From NCBI GenBank assembly GCA_964589195.1, contig CAZPQT010000002.1, positions 1 through 35,371 on the forward strand: 35,371 nt of DNA, given 5' to 3'. Shown here in pieces: positions 6,841 through 29,067 of the stretch. Under the pieces are notes generated by a model. It was given only the letters and a program-made list of their open reading frames with translations. It was not told where the DNA came from and did not search any database. The stretch's first letter is position 1. Every line of letters starts with the position of its first letter. A program made the position numbers and the translations under genes. This stretch comes from an uncultured Candidatus Saccharibacteria bacterium (GTDB taxonomy: Bacteria; Patescibacteriota; Minisyncoccia; Portnoybacterales; UBA2143).

Positions 6841-8063
6841 TGTCTATGCTTCAAAAAATTATTCATTTCACTATTTGTTTAATAGTTTTATCTTTGCCTC
6901 TTTATTTGATTCGTTTGAAGATTGGCTGGATGCCGACTAATCTTTTGGAATTGATGGTTGGCGTATTGTTTATTGTTTGGCTGTTGCAAATAACGCGAGG
7001 ACTGTCCTCAAACAGCAGTCCTAAGGACTGCTGTTTGAGGACAGTCCTCGCTCCCGTGTTTTTGATTTTTCTCGGCATTACTATTTCTACCCTCTTTTCA
7101 GTTGATGTGATAACTAGTGCTGGTATTTGGAAGGGCTGGTTTATTATTCCTCTGATTTTCTTTATTGTCATTATCAGTCATCTAAAGAGCAAAGAGCAGG
7201 TCAGAGACATTCTTTTCGCTTTATTTTTATCAGGAACCGGCGTGGCTTTAGTCGCCTTTTTTTATTGGTTGAATGATAATTTAACTTACGATGGTCGCTT
7301 ACGGGCTTTTTATCTTTCGCCTAATCACTTGGCCATGTATTTATCGCCTGTTCTAATTTTGTCTTTTTATTTATATCCTTCTTTTAAAAAAAATATTTCC
7401 AGAATTTTACTGTTTACAGCCGATTGTCTATTATTTACTGTCATTTACTTAACTTACTCTTACGGCGCCTGGTTAGGAATAGGAGGCGCTTTAATTTTTA
7501 TTTTAATCATTTTTTTTAGGAGTCGGACTCCTGAAAACAAAAGGCATTTTTTTTACCTGATGAGTTTTTTTCTTTTGTTGGTTGTTCTCTCCTTCGTCTG
7601 GCAAATCCCCAGTCAAAAATTTCAGGGCTTCCTTGATTTTTCTTATCCTTCCTGGCAATCCCGGCTAATTATCTGGCAAAGCGCCGGGGAAATAATAAAA
7701 GACCACTCCTTAATTGGGATTGGTCCGGGTATGTTTCAAAAATATTATTTGGCTTACCAGGCTAAATCTCCGACTTATTTAGAATGGGCTGTCCCTCAAC
7801 CTCATAACCTTTTTTTGGCTTTCTGGCTGCAAACCGGCCTGCTCGGCTTAATGGGTTTTATCTGGTTGTTGTCTATTTTTTTTAGAAGCGAGGATTCTAA
7901 AAGAAGCCTCGCTTCTAAATTGTTATCGAATATTCTAATGGCCACTATGCTCTATATCCTCATCCACGGCTTAGTTGATACCACCTACTGGAAAAACGAT
8001 TTATCAATTATCTTCTGGCTGCTCATAGCTCTAAACTATACAAATGACCGTCTCTCTTATTAA
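6840..8063 (+). CDS. Second O-antigen ligase-like polytopic membrane protein
   Basis: YSYGAWLGIGGAL ... QPHNLFLAFWLQTGLLGLMGF. The ATG at 6840 overlaps the upstream TGA (ATGA). The ORF track starts at an in-frame TTG at 6837. The gene carries a 57-nt palindromic in-frame insert at 6995-7051. Confidence 0.75.
   Translation: MSMLQKIIHFTICLIVLSLPLYLIRLKIGWMPTNLLELMVGVLFIVWLLQITRGLSSNSSPKDCCLRTVLAPVFLIFLGITISTLFSVDVITSAGIWKGWFIIPLIFFIVIISHLKSKEQVRDILFALFLSGTGVALVAFFYWLNDNLTYDGRLRAFYLSPNHLAMYLSPVLILSFYLYPSFKKNISRILLFTADCLLFTVIYLTYSYGAWLGIGGALIFILIIFFRSRTPENKRHFFYLMSFFLLLVVLSFVWQIPSQKFQGFLDFSYPSWQSRLIIWQSAGEIIKDHSLIGIGPGMFQKYYLAYQAKSPTYLEWAVPQPHNLFLAFWLQTGLLGLMGFIWLLSIFFRSEDSKRSLASKLLSNILMATMLYILIHGLVDTTYWKNDLSIIFWLLIALNYTNDRLSY
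6995..7051. repeat. 57-nt perfect palindrome (28-nt arms, 1-nt centre), GGAC-N-GTCC family, inside a CDS
   Basis: GCGAGGACTGTCCTCAAACAGCAGTCCT-A-AGGACTGCTGTTTGAGGACAGTCCTCGC. The length is 19 codons. It translates as RGLSSNSSPKDCCLRTVLA within the ligase-like protein. Confidence 0.9.
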
Positions 8064-10871: not shown

Positions 10872-12902
10872 TTAGTAAGCAGTATCTTTTTCTCCTTTTT
10901 CTTCGGCAGCTGGCTTGGGAATGGCTTCGGGTGCGGGTTCAGAAGCGGGTTGAGGGGCAGGTTCAACATCAGGTTTAGCAACGGGTTCAGGGGCAGATTT
11001 TAAAACGGATTCAGAAGCGGGTTCAGTTGTCAGTTCGGGAACGGCTTCGGGCGTAGGTTTGGGAATAGCCGGCGCGGCCGTGGGGTGAGGAATGGATTCG
11101 CTTTCGGATGTTGTTTCTTCTTCAGCCAATTCTTCTTTAGCTTTTTGTATTTCCATTAACTGAGCTGGGTCAGAAGTAATAATTTGGTCTTCGGTATAGG
11201 AGGCGATTATCTTGATAGCCACATGTTTTAGGCCGGCGAAAAAGAGACCCTCGCCGACCGGACATTCCAAAAGCATATATTTCTCCTGGTCAGTCAAATT
11301 AAAAGTTTCTTTGATTACTTCAATCGTGGCCGGCGACTGCTTTAAGAGAAGCTGTAAAGAAGAGTTAGTCACAATCGGCTTGCCGTATTTGGATTTCATA
11401 AAATCAGCCACATCCTGGGTAATAGTAGTTAAGCCAAGGTAATATTTGCGGCATCTCTTGGCAATACCATAAAGGAAGGAACCAGCGTCATCGTGCTGCA
11501 TCATCCACCAGGCCTCGTCAACCACCATCATTCTCTTTTTTTTCTCAGCGCGAATAACGTTCCAGATATAGCGTAAGACAACATACATAGCCAGTGGCCT
11601 TAATTCATCTTCCATATCCCGAATACTAAAGACAATTAATTTATTCTTTAATTGAACGTTGGTTGGTTGGTTAAAAAAGCCCGCGTAACTGCCGCTAACA
11701 TATTTTTCTAAGCGGGTCGCCAAGCTTTCTCCGCCAGTCATCCCTTTTAAAATAGCATAAAGGTCTGACATTAAAGGCGGGCTGATTTTACTAAAATCAG
11801 ATTCCGGCGTAATATCGCGAGCGGCGTAAGTTTGAGTTAAGGCCTTATCCATAACGGCATCCTCTTCAGGAGTCAGGCCGCCCAGCATCATTCTTAAAAG
11901 ACCGACTAAATTAATGATATTACTTCTCAATAGGTTGGCTGGCTTATCGTCTGGTCCGGGGATAGGCAGGTCAAATGGGTTAAGGTTATTGGGCGAAGTT
12001 AAGGAAATATCAATAAACGAACCGCCAACTGTCTCCGCTAAATACTTGTATTCTTTTTCCGGGTCAATGACAATCACTTCAGTATCCTGCATTAAGGAAC
12101 GGAGAATTTCTAATTTAATTGCGTATGATTTTCCTGAACCTGACTTGGCAAATACGCACATATTGGCGTTTTCCAAACCAAAGCGGTCAAATAGAATTAA
12201 AGAGTTGTTGTGTCGGTTAATACCATATAGAATCCCCTTATTATCAGTCAAATCAGAAGAGATAAAGGGAAAATTAGAGGAAAGAGAGGCAGTATTTAAA
12301 CTGTTGTGAATAAGGAGCTTATCTTCTTCTAAGGGGAGAGTGGAGATAAAGCCCTGTTCCTGCTGAAAGACAGCTGGTTTAGCATAAATACTCTGGTTTT
12401 CCAAGAGGGCCCTGATTTTATTTTCAATTTCATCTAATTGTTTAGCGGAATCAGCAAAAAAAGTGAGATAAAGGCCGAATTTGAAAAGCCGTTCTGCCCC
12501 TTGCTGGAGTTTATCGCGCAGCTCTTCAATATTTTTGAGAGCTGTTTCCAAAACCGGGCTGCGGACTTTGCCTTTTTCTTGCTGGAGAGACATTTGGGAC
12601 TGGATTTGGGCTGTTTTTTTGGTTAAGTTTTTCAAAATAACACCTGTTTCAAAAGGATGAATAAACAGAGCAATATTCATTTCCTGGTCCAGAGTGATTA
12701 AAGGCGAAAGCCAGCCAGTATTCAAAACAGCTGGATAAGTAAAGACAAAAATAGTTCGGCCGTATTTTTCGCCAATTTGAAAATAATTAGAATCAATTTT
12801 CAAGCCAGCCGGGGCAATCATATCAACCAAGCTGGTTGGTTGGCTTATTTCGGGAAATTCTTCTCCGCCTATGGCAGATTCATTTTTTTTAAATAGGGGC
12901 AT
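10872..12902 (-). CDS. virB4: VirB4/TrbE-family T4SS ATPase with a C-terminal Pro/Glu/Ala-rich tail
   Basis: Walker A CVFAKSGSGKSYAIK (about nt 12121-12160). Walker B MMVVDEAWWMM (about nt 11499-11531). VirB4-type N-domain (IAPAGLKIDSNYFQIGEKYGRTIFVFTYPAVLNTGWLSPL). The last ~85 aa are low complexity (PKPTPEAVPELTTEPASE...PAPQPASEPAPEAIPKPAAEE). Confidence 0.9.
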   Translation of the reverse strand: MPLFKKNESAIGGEEFPEISQPTSLVDMIAPAGLKIDSNYFQIGEKYGRTIFVFTYPAVLNTGWLSPLITLDQEMNIALFIHPFETGVILKNLTKKTAQIQSQMSLQQEKGKVRSPVLETALKNIEELRDKLQQGAERLFKFGLYLTFFADSAKQLDEIENKIRALLENQSIYAKPAVFQQEQGFISTLPLEEDKLLIHNSLNTASLSSNFPFISSDLTDNKGILYGINRHNNSLILFDRFGLENANMCVFAKSGSGKSYAIKLEILRSLMQDTEVIVIDPEKEYKYLAETVGGSFIDISLTSPNNLNPFDLPIPGPDDKPANLLRSNIINLVGLLRMMLGGLTPEEDAVMDKALTQTYAARDITPESDFSKISPPLMSDLYAILKGMTGGESLATRLEKYVSGSYAGFFNQPTNVQLKNKLIVFSIRDMEDELRPLAMYVVLRYIWNVIRAEKKKRMMVVDEAWWMMQHDDAGSFLYGIAKRCRKYYLGLTTITQDVADFMKSKYGKPIVTNSSLQLLLKQSPATIEVIKETFNLTDQEKYMLLECPVGEGLFFAGLKHVAIKIIASYTEDQIITSDPAQLMEIQKAKEELAEEETTSESESIPHPTAAPAIPKPTPEAVPELTTEPASESVLKSAPEPVAKPDVEPAPQPASEPAPEAIPKPAAEEKGEKDTAY

Positions 12903-20957: not shown

Positions 20958-21452
20958 ATGAAAGGAATTTGCTTGTTTTGTGTCTTGGGAATATTCTTGA
21001 CTGCTTGCGCTTTTCAAGTTAAGGATTATCCGGTGATTAAAGACCCTAATTATCCTCGGGTAGTGGTTAAGGAAAAAGAGGGAAACGTAGTTAAAGGAAA
21101 GAAGCCCCAGGAAGAAAGAATCCAGGTAGGAACTTTTTATCCGGATCCTACTCGAGGTTATATTGAAAACCAGACCTATAATGTTTTCATTATGATTTGG
21201 CTGGATCCGGTTTTTGAAAAAGGAAAAGCCAAGGGTCCGCCCGATTTTGACCTGCCGCCCAAAGCAGTTGTTGAAGCAGTGATGCCCTTGGGCGGGCATA
21301 ATATTTATGCCCAAGGCAGAATGAAAACAGAGCAGTATGGCTGGCAGTCATTGGGGGAAGCTAACAAGAGATTCTCAATTGATTCCCGGGTCTATTATGA
21401 CGAAAATTACGGCTGGTACATCATTTTTCATCAAGGCGATTTTGAACGATGA
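20958..21452 (+). CDS. Lipoprotein, hypothetical
   Basis: 164 aa. Signal peptide with lipobox (VLGIFLTAC|AFQ). GGAGG lies upstream of the ATG. The 3' end overlaps the convergent rsmA by 22 nt. Confidence 0.75.
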   Translation: MKGICLFCVLGIFLTACAFQVKDYPVIKDPNYPRVVVKEKEGNVVKGKKPQEERIQVGTFYPDPTRGYIENQTYNVFIMIWLDPVFEKGKAKGPPDFDLPPKAVVEAVMPLGGHNIYAQGRMKTEQYGWQSLGEANKRFSIDSRVYYDENYGWYIIFHQGDFER

Positions 21453-22276
21453 AAACGATGGAATAATTTCAGCCAGTCCTCAACGGACAGGTTTTCTGCC
21501 CTGACTTGAATGTCTAAACGACATTGAGTCAGGGCTTTTTTTATTTTTCCCCGGTCTAAGTTGAGTTTTTGAAAAAGGTTATTGATTAATTGTTTTCTGG
21601 GACTGGCAAAGCCAGCTTTGACGATTCGGAAAAACTTTTCTGGGTTGATGTTTTTCGGTTTTTTAATCTGGCTGATTTTAATGATGGCGGAATCTACTTT
21701 GGGTCGAGGCCAGAAAGATTTTTTGGAGACGTAAGAAATGATTTTTGGCTGGCTGTAAAATTGGACGGCTACGGCTAACAAACTCATTTTCGGTGGCTTG
21801 GCGCAAATTCTTTGAGCCACTTCTTTTTGAATCAGGAGAATCATTTCTTGAGGCGGCCGGGCTGATTCTAAAAATAAACGAATCAGCGGCGAAGTTAAAT
21901 AGTAAGGAATATTAGCTACTACCTTATATTTCTTTAGGGACAGTCCCTCTGATACAGTCCTTGATTCAAGGACTGTATCAGAGGGACTGTCCCTGAGAAT
22001 CTTGAGAATATCGTTGTGGATAATTTCAACATTCTGGTGATCTTTCAAGGTTTCTTGTAGTCTGGTAACCATTCGTTTATCTTTTTCCACGGCTATAACT
22101 TTTTTGGCTCTTTGGGCTAATTCTTGAGTAAGAATGCCTAAGCCGGGGCCGATTTCCAAAACAATATCTTTTTTAGAAATTTCAGCAGTCTGGATAATTT
22201 TTTGGAGCGCTTTTTGACTAATTAAAAAATGCTGGCCTAATCGTTTACTGGGCTGGAGATGACATTTTTTAAACAT
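21431..22276 (-). CDS. rsmA: 16S rRNA (adenine1518/1519-N6)-dimethyltransferase RsmA/KsgA, carrying a palindromic-element insert
   Basis: LGQHFL near the N-terminus. SAM-binding VLEIGPGLGILT. VVANIPYYLTSP motif. Typical C-terminal helical domain. The segment RDSPSDTVLESRTVSEGLS is encoded by the repeat at 21936-21994. Confidence 0.9.
   Translation of the reverse strand: MFKKCHLQPSKRLGQHFLISQKALQKIIQTAEISKKDIVLEIGPGLGILTQELAQRAKKVIAVEKDKRMVTRLQETLKDHQNVEIIHNDILKILRDSPSDTVLESRTVSEGLSLKKYKVVANIPYYLTSPLIRLFLESARPPQEMILLIQKEVAQRICAKPPKMSLLAVAVQFYSQPKIISYVSKKSFWPRPKVDSAIIKISQIKKPKNINPEKFFRIVKAGFASPRKQLINNLFQKLNLDRGKIKKALTQCRLDIQVRAENLSVEDWLKLFHRFHRSKSP
21936..21994. repeat. 59-nt perfect palindrome (29-nt arms), GGAC-N-GTCC family, inside rsmA
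   Basis: AGGGACAGTCCCTCTGATACAGTCCTTGA-T-TCAAGGACTGTATCAGAGGGACTGTCCCT, read directly from the sequence. Confidence 0.9.
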
Positions 22277-22282
22277 AGATGA

Positions 22283-22341
22283 TGAGGGACTGTCCCTAAG
22301 ATACAGTCCTTCAAGGACTGTATCTTAGGGACAGTCCCTCA
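22283..22341. repeat. 59-nt perfect palindrome, GGAC-N-GTCC family, at the helicase/rsmA junction
   Basis: TGAGGGACTGTCCCTAAGATACAGTCCTT-C-AAGGACTGTATCTTAGGGACAGTCCCTCA. It encodes the helicase C-terminus EGLSLRYSP and its TGA stop. Confidence 0.9.
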
Positions 22342-24221
22342 GGAATATCGGAAAGGAATCTAGAAGGTGGATTAACCATGGTTTGGCCATAGAGGCGCCG
22401 TTGTTGGGTAAATGTAAGATAGACCCGTTGTTTGGCTCGGGTTATCCCCACATAGCAAAGCCGTCTTTCTTCTTCCATTTGTCCAAGGTCAAAAGAGCTT
22501 CTTGAATGGGGAAAAATTCCCTCTTCACAGCCAATAATAAAAACCACCGGAAATTCTAATCCTTTGGCGCAATGCAAGGTCATTAAATTGATTAAGTTCT
22601 TTTTTGTCTCCACTTCATCAAGACTACTTAATAAAGAGACTTCTTCTAAAAATTTTTCCAAGCCCAAACCGGGTTTCAGTTGATTATATTTATTAGCCAC
22701 GGTCAAAAGTTCTTGGACATTTTCCCAGCGCCTCTCCCCTTCTTCTTGACCATCACGAATATATTTTTCGTAATTAATTTTTTGGATGATTGTTTTGATT
22801 AAATTAGTTAAAGGCATTTTTTGGCTGGTTTGGCGGAAATTGTCAATTAGTTGATAGAAGTTTTTAAGTGGTTCAGGGACAGTCCCTAATCTCCAGTCCT
22901 TTTCCGAAGGACTGGAGATTAGGGACTGTCCCTGATACTTGGCTAAACGTCGGGGAGGAACATTAATGATTCTTTGGCAACTAACCAAATCATTAGGATT
23001 AACAATCAGTTTAAGATAAGCCAGCATATCTTTAATTTCTTTTCGTTCATAGAACCTGACCGTGCCAATAATTTTGTAAGGGAAATTTGCTTTTAAAAAG
23101 GCCTCTTCCACAGCTCGCGACTGGGCATTGGTCCGGTAAAGAACAGTGAAATCCTGAAACTTGAAGCCTGAAACTTGAGATAAATTAGTTATCTCATCGA
23201 CAATAAAATTTCCCTCTTTTTCTTCATCGGCTAATTCAACAAGATTAATTAAATCTCCTGGGGGATTTTTAGTCCAAAGGTTCTTTTCTTTGCGTTGAGT
23301 ATTTTTGCTGATAATATGGTGGCTGGCCTCTAAGATATTGGGAGTGGAGCGGTAATTCTCTTCTAAAAGAATCACTTTGGCCTGAGGATAGTCCTTTTCA
23401 AAATTTAAGATGTTCCTGAAGTCAGCTCCTCGCCAGCTGTATATTGACTGGTCTGGATCGGCAATAAGCCAGAGATTTTTATACTTTTCAGCCAATAAAT
23501 TTATTAAAGTATATTGGCTGAGATTTGTGTCATGGGCCTCGTCAACTAAAATATACTGCCATTTTTCCTGGCATTTTTTCAAGATAGCCGGATTTTTCTG
23601 GAAGAGTTGGACAGTCAGCATAATTAAATCATCAAAATCAAGGGCATCGGCCTTTTTTAAAGCAGTTTGATAAGCCAGGTAAATTTTAGCTATGGTCTGG
23701 GGAAAATATTCTTGGGCTTGGGCTTGATAGGTCTGACAGTCAATTAATTCGTCTTTAGCTCGGGAAATCATTTCGCCAGCTGATTTTGGCTTGAATTGTT
23801 CTGGATTAATTTGCAGGTCTTTGATTATTTTTTTAATTAAAGAGAGCTGGTCAGTTTGGTCATAGATAATGAAATTTTTTTGATATCCCTTTAGTCCGTC
23901 CTCTGGCGGAAATTTATCTATTTCCCGACGGAGAATTTGTAAACAAATAGCATGAAAAGTGCCAATGGTTGGCGCAGACTGAGAAGGGCCGCTTCTCAAG
24001 AGAAGTTTTTTAACCCTTTCTTTCATTTCTCCAGCGGCTTTATTGGTAAAAGTAACGGCCAGGATATTGGCTGCAGGAATATCTTGCCGAATAAGATAGG
24101 CAATGCGGTGAGTTAAACAACGAGTTTTCCCCGAGCCCGGTCCGGAAATAACTAAAACCGGTCCCCTTAAAATGGTGACCGCTTGTTTTTGTTTTGGATT
24201 AAGTGAAGAAAGTATGTCCAT
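22311..24221 (-). CDS. pcrA: UvrD/PcrA/Rep-family ATP-dependent DNA helicase, carrying palindromic-element sequence
   Basis: SF1 helicase motifs: ISGPGSGKTRCL (I), TFTNKAAGEM (Ia), ILVDEAHDTN (II), IADPDQSIYSWRGA (III), ENYRSTPNIL (IV), LYRTNAQSR, LMTLHCAKGLEFPVVF (V), EEERRLCYVGITRAKQ (VI). Confidence 0.9.
   Translation of the reverse strand: MDILSSLNPKQKQAVTILRGPVLVISGPGSGKTRCLTHRIAYLIRQDIPAANILAVTFTNKAAGEMKERVKKLLLRSGPSQSAPTIGTFHAICLQILRREIDKFPPEDGLKGYQKNFIIYDQTDQLSLIKKIIKDLQINPEQFKPKSAGEMISRAKDELIDCQTYQAQAQEYFPQTIAKIYLAYQTALKKADALDFDDLIMLTVQLFQKNPAILKKCQEKWQYILVDEAHDTNLSQYTLINLLAEKYKNLWLIADPDQSIYSWRGADFRNILNFEKDYPQAKVILLEENYRSTPNILEASHHIISKNTQRKEKNLWTKNPPGDLINLVELADEEKEGNFIVDEITNLSQVSGFKFQDFTVLYRTNAQSRAVEEAFLKANFPYKIIGTVRFYERKEIKDMLAYLKLIVNPNDLVSCQRIINVPPRRLAKYQGQSLISSPSEKDWRLGTVPEPLKNFYQLIDNFRQTSQKMPLTNLIKTIIQKINYEKYIRDGQEEGERRWENVQELLTVANKYNQLKPGLGLEKFLEEVSLLSSLDEVETKKNLINLMTLHCAKGLEFPVVFIIGCEEGIFPHSRSSFDLGQMEEERRLCYVGITRAKQRVYLTFTQQRRLYGQTMVNPPSRFLSDIPEGLSLRYSP
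22873..22935. repeat. 63-nt palindrome (29-nt arms, 5-nt loop), GGAC-N-GTCC family, inside the helicase gene
   Basis: TCAGGGACAGTCCCTAATCTCCAGTCCTT-TTCCG-AAGGACTGGAGATTAGGGACTGTCCCTGA. The length is 21 codons. It translates on the minus strand as QGQSLISSPSEKDWRLGTVPE. Confidence 0.9.
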
Positions 24222-29000: not shown

Positions 29001-29067
29001 GTCAAGGACTGTATCTTAGGGACAGTCCCTATGTTACAGTCCTTGGTATGACGAGGACAGTCCTTGA
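29001..29067. repeat. Composite/rearranged copy of the GGAC-N-GTCC palindromic element between pilB and pilC
   Basis: 29004-29030 (AAGGACTGTATCTTAGGGACAGTCCCT) is identical to the right arm of the copy at 22313-22339. TCAAGGACTGT (29002-29012) pairs with ACAGTCCTTGA (29057-29067). Confidence 0.8.

Follow-up and report, generated by a model that had tools for sequence, protein, structure and literature searches.

Repetitive extragenic palindromic (REP) sequences and the hairpin-forming REP doublets known as REPINs are extragenic by name and have mostly been studied in Proteobacteria, and in-frame 'selfish' palindromes are known mainly from Rickettsia. The anatomy of REPs and REPINs has been described for the REP-associated tyrosine transposase (RAYT) systems of Pseudomonas fluorescens SBW25 and E. 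coli (PMC3337134, PMC3733652), and the Rickettsia palindromic elements (RPEs) of reduced Rickettsia genomes are repeats of ~100-150 bp, which encode a family-specific conserved peptide and have no identified transposase (Ogata et al. 2000, as cited in PMC10969869). Template switching, in turn, creates or keeps perfect stems and homogenises the arms of inverted repeats in coding DNA (PMC8794818, PMC8604942, PMC7202029). Here, we analysed a stretch of 35,371 nt (the window, i.e. positions 1-35,371 of contig 2) from the genome of a member of the Patescibacteria, in which a perfect palindrome of 63 nt lies in frame within the gene of a PcrA/UvrD-type helicase. Most probably, this palindrome is a REPIN copy that sits in a permissive linker of domain 2B, is read through by the ribosome and has its arms kept complementary at the DNA level. 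In the full-text literature searched, such elements were described neither for Patescibacteria nor for the Candidate Phyla Radiation.

The genome of the window (G000) comprises 558 kb in 41 contigs, the smallest of 2.4 kb, with 38 % G+C and an estimated completeness of 96.6 %. Host gene and element are placed as follows:

22311-24221, minus strand: host gene, a PcrA/UvrD-type SF1A helicase of 636 aa (P0001), assigned by Pfam and structure match
22873-22935, minus strand: REPIN-type inverted doublet of 63 nt, in frame in the helicase, encoding residues 430-450
22876-22886, unstranded: left REP unit, central palindrome GGGAC-A-GTCCC
22922-22932, unstranded: right REP unit, central palindrome GGGAC-T-GTCCC

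The palindrome consists of two 29-nt arms, 100 % complementary, around a 5-nt loop (TCAGGGACAGTCCCTAATCTCCAGTCCTT-TTCCG-AAGGACTGGAGATTAGGGACTGTCCCTGA), with TAATCTCC / GGAGATTA as its inner arms, and its 24-nt arm core was matched in none of 100 dinucleotide-preserving shuffles of the window. As stated in the preliminary description, which had been made from the letters and their open reading frames (ORFs), the element is exactly 21 codons long: on the coding strand the 63 nt begin at base 3 of codon Y429 and end at base 2 of codon E450, and the encoded peptide, QGQSLISSPSEKDWRLGTVPE, follows directly on IINVPPRRLAKY. The tryptic junction peptides predicted from this copy are YQGQSLISSPSEK and LGTVPEPLK. 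As RNA, the copy folds into a perfect 29-bp hairpin with a calculated free energy of -57.9 kcal/mol. Rfam returned only eukaryotic microRNA precursor models below threshold (27-41 bits against gathering scores of 51-200); as such matches are expected from any perfect hairpin, a microRNA-precursor identity was rejected.

In the host protein, Pfam recognises UvrD-helicase (residues 7-279, E 1.6e-88) and UvrD_C (residues 284-606, E 6.3e-78), and the sequence carries GPGSGKT as Walker A motif and VDEAHD as DE box. By sequence, the closest solved structure is PcrA 1PJR (E 4e-174), and the closest named homologues come from metagenome-assembled genomes of Candidatus Portnoybacteria and the 'Patescibacteria group'. 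An AlphaFold model built on a 77-sequence alignment, with a mean predicted local distance difference test (pLDDT) of 85.6 and a predicted template modelling score of 0.83, has the four-subdomain fold and matches closed, DNA-bound PcrA 3PJR and UvrD 2IS1 with a template modelling score of 0.91. The element segment lies in what we take to be domain 2B, going by the domain limits of PcrA and UvrD. The structural comparison that the preliminary description had called for places the element in a low-confidence linker of the modelled domain 2B, where residues 421-439 are modelled as coil and 440-445 as a short helix, the next confident helix starting at 450; over residues 421-450 the block pLDDT values are 57, 50 and 63, i.e. 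~50-63 for the insert.

The same description had placed the element after the counterpart of the IN-x-P-x-R-G-I-G region of SF1 helicases, and indeed IINVPPR aligns with IINVPKR-GIG of PcrA. The GIG motif itself, which contacts duplex DNA (PMC3797037), is absent, the helicase reading PPR-RRL-AK where PcrA has PKR-GIG-AS. Most of the clade has RRLAK (residues 424-428 in the window) at this position, and scattered members retain RGIGK. From there to the conserved PLKNFYQLI helix the stretch is hypervariable: element-free relatives have ~9-16 unrelated residues between the anchors, none of them conserved across the whole set, two orthologues (P0080 and P0083) lack the linker segment wholly, and the PcrA linker is roughly 13 residues longer than that of the window helicase. 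An alignment of the insert to conserved helicase sequence, which would have spoken against the original claim, was not found. Judging from these alignments, the element is an occupant of a hypervariable linker and not a clean addition to conserved sequence, and since element-free orthologues have other residues at that site, its net gain over typical relatives is only ~6 residues.

Three further observations concern this linker and its gene. A near-identical short GIG-type linker (PPRGIGK[IV]TFQKQSG..) recurs in several unrelated branches, one of which is the sister of the window's lineage, and this scatter suggests that the 2B segment has been exchanged by recombination. A widespread native linker (..NIQELYLLKDCPEPL) was also compared with the half unit of the repeat (cf. 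QGLYLRDCP). For L050, 10 of 2000 shuffles scored equally and the best place in the gene was the linker, which is suggestive of an older half-unit relic; the same shuffle comparison gave no such signal for L051. In addition, seven close orthologues (P0005, P0041, P0043, P0067, P0076, P0085 and P0091) are ~990-1080 aa long and contain intein/Hint domains (PF14890, PF01079 and PF14528), so by their domain content the helicase also serves as an intein host in related lineages.

The palindrome belongs to a repeat family with a unit of 27 nt, composed of GGGAC-W-GTCCC, TAAGATAC and AGTCCTTG (whole unit GGGACWGTCCCTAAGATACAGTCCTTG). The 558-kb genome contains 92 half-unit matches at ~45 loci, and the core GGGACWGTCCC occurs 56 times, with only A (29) or T (27) at its centre. 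Units are found in inverted doublets whose cores lie outermost (57-63 nt; n=23), in 43-nt forms built around one central core, singly and in chains, and contigs of this genome end at elements. We searched the unit pattern in 61 genomes, in all of which the reversed-pattern control gave zero matches. The unit was absent from 57 of them and abundant only in G000 (66 matches), the congener G001 (53) and G017 (76), a member of another genus of the same family; G005 had one palindromic site. A scan that took one genome for each prokaryote species returned the exact consensus unit in two records only, and a limited set of metagenomes had it in 89 contigs. The variant of the helicase copy (TAATCTCC arms) had no exact match in the metagenome and genome collections, from which the window's own genome records were excluded.

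Besides the helicase copy, the window holds four more members of the family:

22283-22341, unstranded: second doublet, 59 nt, perfect; gives the last codons of the helicase (..EGLSLRYSP) and its TGA stop, and ends 7 nt before the rsmA ATG
21936-21994, minus strand: third doublet, perfect over its 59 nt, lying in frame within rsmA (ORF 21431-22276), read as RDSPSDTVLESRTVSEGLSL, with TAA changed to TCT in both arms
29003-29045, unstranded: intergenic 43-nt copy with a flank on each side of the core (long palindromic REP singlet type)
6995-7051, unstranded: variant palindrome of 57 nt with a GAGGAC-W-GTCCTC core, a related subtype

Three doublets are therefore found within 1 kb of the helicase-rsmA operon. 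Where the second doublet stands in the window, L002, L005, L006 and L007 have native helicase C-termini (..NLIDFREY and similar) and other intergenic sequence.

Other palindromes were seen as well. A second family of perfect palindromes, ~56 nt long (..GGACTGTCCTCATATTTGCTTTTT|AAAAAGCAAATATGAGGACAGTCC.., the bar marking the centre), has a GGAC-W-GTCC core and an A/T-rich centre, because of which it may be terminator-like; its sites are listed here:

C6:8630-8685, C7:3035-3090, C10:23472-23527, C11:8685-8762, C13:16262-16315, C20:4942-4987 and C26:1-44

Yet another long perfect palindrome family, with core GGTCAGACC and 36-nt arms, is present at L006:3914-3985 and in the helicase-rsmA spacer of L006.

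Of the ~45 family loci, ~15 (about a third) are located far within long ORFs, and each of the three reading frames is represented. The hosts are intact housekeeping genes, i.e. those for RsmA, the helicase, TsaD, LepA and a MiaB-like radical-SAM enzyme, together with a D-Ala-D-Ala carboxypeptidase (Peptidase_S11), FemAB, two family 4 (GT4) glycosyltransferases, a 1312-aa RpoC-like protein and an NFACT-R_2-containing protein with a weak match to a tRNA-methyltransferase domain. Examples of the frames are QG[QL]SLRYSP..KDCILGTVP, RDSPSDTVLESRTVSEGLSL and GTVPRIQSL. The preliminary description had reported that the helicase copy (GGA-CAG-TCC) and the rsmA copy (GAC-AGT-CCC) are read in different frames, which is correct, and had concluded that the element is tolerated in more than one frame without stops; this applies to the copies, with the qualification that the consensus has a TAA or TAG in one frame of each arm (RDSP-stop-DTVL and RTVS-stop-GLSL). 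Copies that use the stop-bearing frame, including the one in rsmA, have TCT, TCA, TCG or TTA in place of TAA, mirrored in the other arm. Non-TAA spacers were counted in 19 of 28 in-ORF units versus 25 of 56, which is only a trend (p = 0.06).

Every in-ORF copy keeps the frame and is free of stops, and apart from the element the host genes are intact and conserved. Between G000 and G001, in-ORF copies differ by 12, 21 or 36 nt, and some of the intergenic differences have a length not divisible by three (e.g. 14 nt). As a segment that is removed or bypassed would need neither multiples of three nor freedom from stops, these patterns argue for read-through, and the helicase element is most likely translated as a 21-residue, mostly disordered loop on the surface of the modelled protein.

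One GT4 glycosyltransferase gene has at least three in-frame pieces (C17:11173-11265 and 11436-11462; ..QGQSFGYSPSREQGQSLGYSPCSKDCIRGTVP.., QGLSLRDSP), and its counterpart in the congener G001 has one 36-nt unit fewer. Two ORFs of the genome are broken by runs of N, one at C1:26920-27040 and one in the 3' part of the RpoC-like ORF on C13.

In relatives, the family is accompanied by a candidate mobilising enzyme. An ORF of 197 aa, found in six metagenome contigs (in one of them at L079:3003-3596), matches Pfam Y1_Tnp (PF01797, IS200-like) with 50 bits and contains NHIHLLL, which by our own reading would be an HUH-type motif. The unit flanks this RAYT gene on both sides in L079, in five further contigs and in contig C15 of G017: a 43-nt copy ends 7 nt before the ATG, and a doublet gives the last codons and the stop (..NIRDCP-TAA). 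The orthologous RAYT of G017 (C15; L157:2215-2865) has the same layout, with element copies between all genes of the stretch. The RAYT of G021, 57 % identical (L156:1282-1866), again has this layout around a different palindrome (GGGGGC-T-GCCCCC..GGGGGC-A-GCCCCC), which indicates cognate specificity. In these two RAYT-palindrome pairs, the transposase gene thus receives its own last codons and stop from its repeat, a second copy standing few bases before the start. Based on the repeat-flanked RAYT layout together with the REP/REPIN anatomy, we file the element as a compact REPIN-type repeat with a cognate RAYT in relatives, which extends the earlier reading by an element type.

Other mobilisers were considered. 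The window's genome has no rve-type transposase, and its small, element-rich contigs encode housekeeping genes only and no mobilising enzyme. Target-site duplications were not seen in the inspected alignments, in which the flanks are often palindromic themselves. A miniature inverted-repeat transposable element of the DDE type was therefore rejected, given that neither a target duplication nor an rve transposase was seen and the associated enzyme is of the Y1 type. An ORF of 228 aa (C25:284-967, minus strand) has an N-terminal HTH_23 domain and, by our reading, a LAGLIDADG-like motif (IAGIVMYFAEGDK), which Pfam does not report. Its family is patchy, multi-copy and sometimes interrupted by internal stops; it looks like a mobile homing-endonuclease family, with no link to the palindromes. 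As a mobiliser it was discarded, since 33 of 61 relatives have the family and the element-rich G017 lacks it.

The likeness to described REP/REPIN systems extends to a central palindrome with flanks, an inverted doublet forming a hairpin, a centre base that marks the orientation and an inner part that is variable and always pairs (PMC3337134), as well as to long palindromic singlets, symmetric central excision products, a Y1 gene flanked by its own repeats, a separate palindrome for each RAYT paralogue and the lack of target duplications. In contrast to those systems, the doublets measure 57-63 nt instead of ~89 nt, their arms are usually 100 % complementary, the host is a patescibacterial genome of 0.56 Mb in which no RAYT was found, and ~15 of 45 loci are intragenic, in frame and apparently translated, so that these copies are not extragenic as the name of the repeats has it. 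With RPEs, the family shares in-frame palindromes in unrelated housekeeping genes and extra peptide segments compatible with the fold, but it differs in its 27-nt unit and 57-63-nt element, in a frame-dependent, drifting peptide, in its cognate RAYT and in its patescibacterial host; an identity with RPEs is excluded by size, peptide and lineage.

Comparing the syntenic contigs of relatives at the DNA level revealed full, decayed, shortened and element-free states of the helicase site, thereby answering the question of presence and absence in related genomes raised by the preliminary description:

Window: perfect 63 nt, inner arm TAATCTCC / GGAGATTA
G001/L001 (94 % aa identity): element of 63 nt, positioned exactly as in the window; the left arm resembles the consensus (TAAGATAC) and the right arm has two mismatches
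L004: 63 nt, right arm decayed
L005: 45 nt
L006: 33 nt, a perfect short palindrome of two cores
L002 (in the tree, sister to the window plus G001): short linker of the GIG type, which recurs here and there in distant lineages
L007 and G017: 15 codons of unrelated linker sequence
P0027 (from a distant clade): another palindrome of this family, perfect and 57 nt long, whose start in the linker lies two codons further downstream

The helicase palindrome is not an assembly artefact, since it occupies the same nucleotide position in contigs of other metagenome assemblies (G001/L001, L004, L005 and L006). In a clade of six (SH-aLRT 95), five members share this position, which points to a single ancestral insertion followed by decay. 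All lengths at the site (63, 63, 63, 45 and 33 nt) are multiples of three, with changes of 18 and 30 nt, and the 33-nt form of L006 is as expected from symmetric central excision. The linker of L002 suggests a replacement by recombination, and the palindrome of P0027, with its other sequence and position, is an independent event.

In rsmA, the loop between DILK and YKVVANIPYY contains the full doublet in the window and L001, a single half unit in another frame (KDCIRGTVP, codons ~95-103) in L004 and L005, an unrelated palindrome (LRSKAPKKFLRSLAPK) in L007 and AAATTCA-type repeats in L006. By this comparison, the loop appears to be a recurrent landing or retention site.

The arms of the elements evidently change together. 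Perfect 26-nt arms are present in 13 of 23 doublets, 10 of these 13 differing from the consensus at 1-3 positions. When the window is compared with L001, two positions differ in the rsmA copies and two in the junction copies, and all of these changes are mirrored in the other arm. The helicase copy departs from the consensus at 3-4 positions per arm, all mirrored; because this variant is found nowhere else in the genome, it arose in place and not by re-insertion of an existing variant. Even the centre base is affected: between window/L001 and L004-L006, it is flipped from A to T in both cores with the overall symmetry kept, and in the junction copy a G-to-C difference between orthologues is seen in the one-base loop. 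No intermediates of the G-U type were seen in the stems.

Independent substitutions would not give such a pattern. Selection on the peptide was likewise rejected as the cause of the arm co-variation, because each mirrored change alters two codons. The palindromy would rather be kept by a process acting on the DNA, and hairpin-templated correction (template switching) is probably what homogenises the arms. The mirrored multi-nucleotide changes, centre flips and stems free of G-U intermediates resemble template-switch quasipalindromes (PMC8794818, PMC8604942, PMC7202029), but those studies dealt with ordinary inverted repeats, whereas here a transposase-linked repeat family would be concerned and the mechanism is inferred.

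Taken together, we propose the following course of events. Two inverted 27-nt REP-like units, each made up of GGGAC-W-GTCCC and TAAGATAC-AGTCCTTG, would form the REPIN, and a cognate RAYT, an IS200-related transposase of the Y1 HUH type, would have mobilised the units in the form of single-stranded hairpins, a kind of transposition for which a lack of target-site duplications is expected. One copy would have entered, or taken over, the hypervariable and permissive 2B linker in the common ancestor of a small clade. As its length is a multiple of three and its frame free of stops, the ribosome would read it as a disordered loop of 21 residues and the helicase would stay functional. A DNA-level process, probably hairpin-templated correction, would keep the arms complementary while the peptide drifts two codons at a time, and the hairpin would decay by symmetric central deletions in multiples of three.

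Several points weigh against this proposal. No Y1 transposase was detected in the window's genome, either by Pfam search or by tblastn with the cognate protein, and G001 has only one that is 35 % identical; the element may therefore be an immobile relic, or the family orphaned in the window's genus. Alternatively, the repeat-flanked RAYT gene of 0.6 kb was lost in assembly, which is conceivable because the smallest contig has 2.4 kb and contigs break at elements. The RAYT neighbourhoods of L079 and G017 are not syntenic with the window's genome and therefore give no evidence on RAYT loss versus an assembly gap, and mobility or immobility of the family there today is a matter of inference. The unit GGGACWGTCCCTAAGATACAGTCCTTG and its complement lack the GTAG/CGTC tag of classical REPs (PMC3733652). 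Neither the helicase nor the rsmA copy has a clean empty site, as element-free orthologues have other sequence there (~15 codons in the helicase). Translation of the helicase element is deduced indirectly, from frame and stop pattern, and the proposal does not account for the cost to be expected of a perfect 29-bp RNA hairpin where RNase III is encoded in the genome. Finally, the perfect arms could reflect selection for hairpin function, which is disfavoured as a general force by the decayed and shortened orthologous forms and by the missing G-U intermediates.

This last point leads to an explanation that we consider unlikely, i.e. a domesticated element, which would tune the helicase-rsmA operon as a site for RNase III or for the rate of translation, or would serve as a new regulatory loop of the autoinhibitory domain 2B, selection keeping the palindrome. 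Three doublets within 1 kb of one operon, arms that stay perfect although the peptide changes, and an encoded RNase III would all fit, as would a site adjoining the duplex-binding GIG position of 2B (PMC3797037), which the clade has lost. However, orthologues tolerate a decayed arm (L004), a length of 45 nt (L005) or 33 nt (L006), an unrelated linker (L002 and L007) and, in two cases, loss of the segment. Moreover, the peptide is unconserved, G-U intermediates, the usual trace of selection at the RNA level, are missing, and template switching alone can keep hairpins perfect (PMC8794818). For the family as a whole, we see a similarly slight chance that REPIN hairpins are kept perfect as cis-acting RNase III, ribosome-pausing or replication/recombination signals, or that they generate new protein loops. 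If so, the RAYT-driven family would double as a genome-wide layer of post-transcriptional control, or, as a loop generator, the element would have remodelled the regulatory domain 2B of the only PcrA/UvrD-type helicase after the loss of GIG.

It is distinctly improbable that the repeats are not transposable at all, having either grown locally by template switching on a GGGAC-W-GTCCC seed or been selected as binding or uptake-signal sites, with the RAYT incidental. At one site only the 11-nt core is present in G001 and G000 has 76 nt more, many other differences between the two genomes are gains or losses of half units at occupied sites, and no target-site duplication was seen. Nevertheless, local growth cannot yield the same 27-nt unit with its non-palindromic 16-nt flank at ~45 unrelated loci and in 89 metagenome contigs, and it leaves aside the RAYT genes flanked by units in the classical layout and the paralogous RAYT with a palindrome of its own.

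The hairpin might also remain untranslated, owing to a ribosome bypass like that of T4 gene 60 or to removal from the mRNA, giving a protein without the 21 residues. We regard this as very improbable: in-ORF copies and indels all come in multiples of three, the stop-bearing frame is repaired and no take-off and landing codon pair is evident, even though a hairpin of -57.9 kcal/mol is very stable and the fold is compatible with deletion of the segment, the region being absent from P0080 and P0083. Splicing of such hairpins from bacterial mRNA is not known, which counts against removal in particular.

Fold-back chimeras can give perfect palindromes and contigs of this genome break at elements, but an assembly or amplification artefact is a negligible prospect in view of the identical position in a continuous ORF, the other metagenome assemblies and the lineage-specific substitutions.

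A translated REPIN copy in the 2B linker thus remains our preferred reading, and the phenomenon is explained by known mechanisms, is apparently unpublished for the phylum and has the helicase copy as one of many. In practical terms, annotation of these genomes should allow for repeats as a source of odd low-complexity inserts and of altered C-termini. The locus would join two phenomena, a compact REPIN with an identifiable RAYT and in-frame copies in essential genes, within a genome of only 0.56 Mb, and its orthologue series would show how a protein loop arises, drifts by two codons at once and becomes shorter. It may therefore offer a tractable case for the tolerance of mobile DNA in tiny, gene-dense genomes, for the reshaping of coding sequence by hairpin-templated mutation, and for the share of unexplained 'extra loops' in Patescibacteria proteins that derives from such elements.

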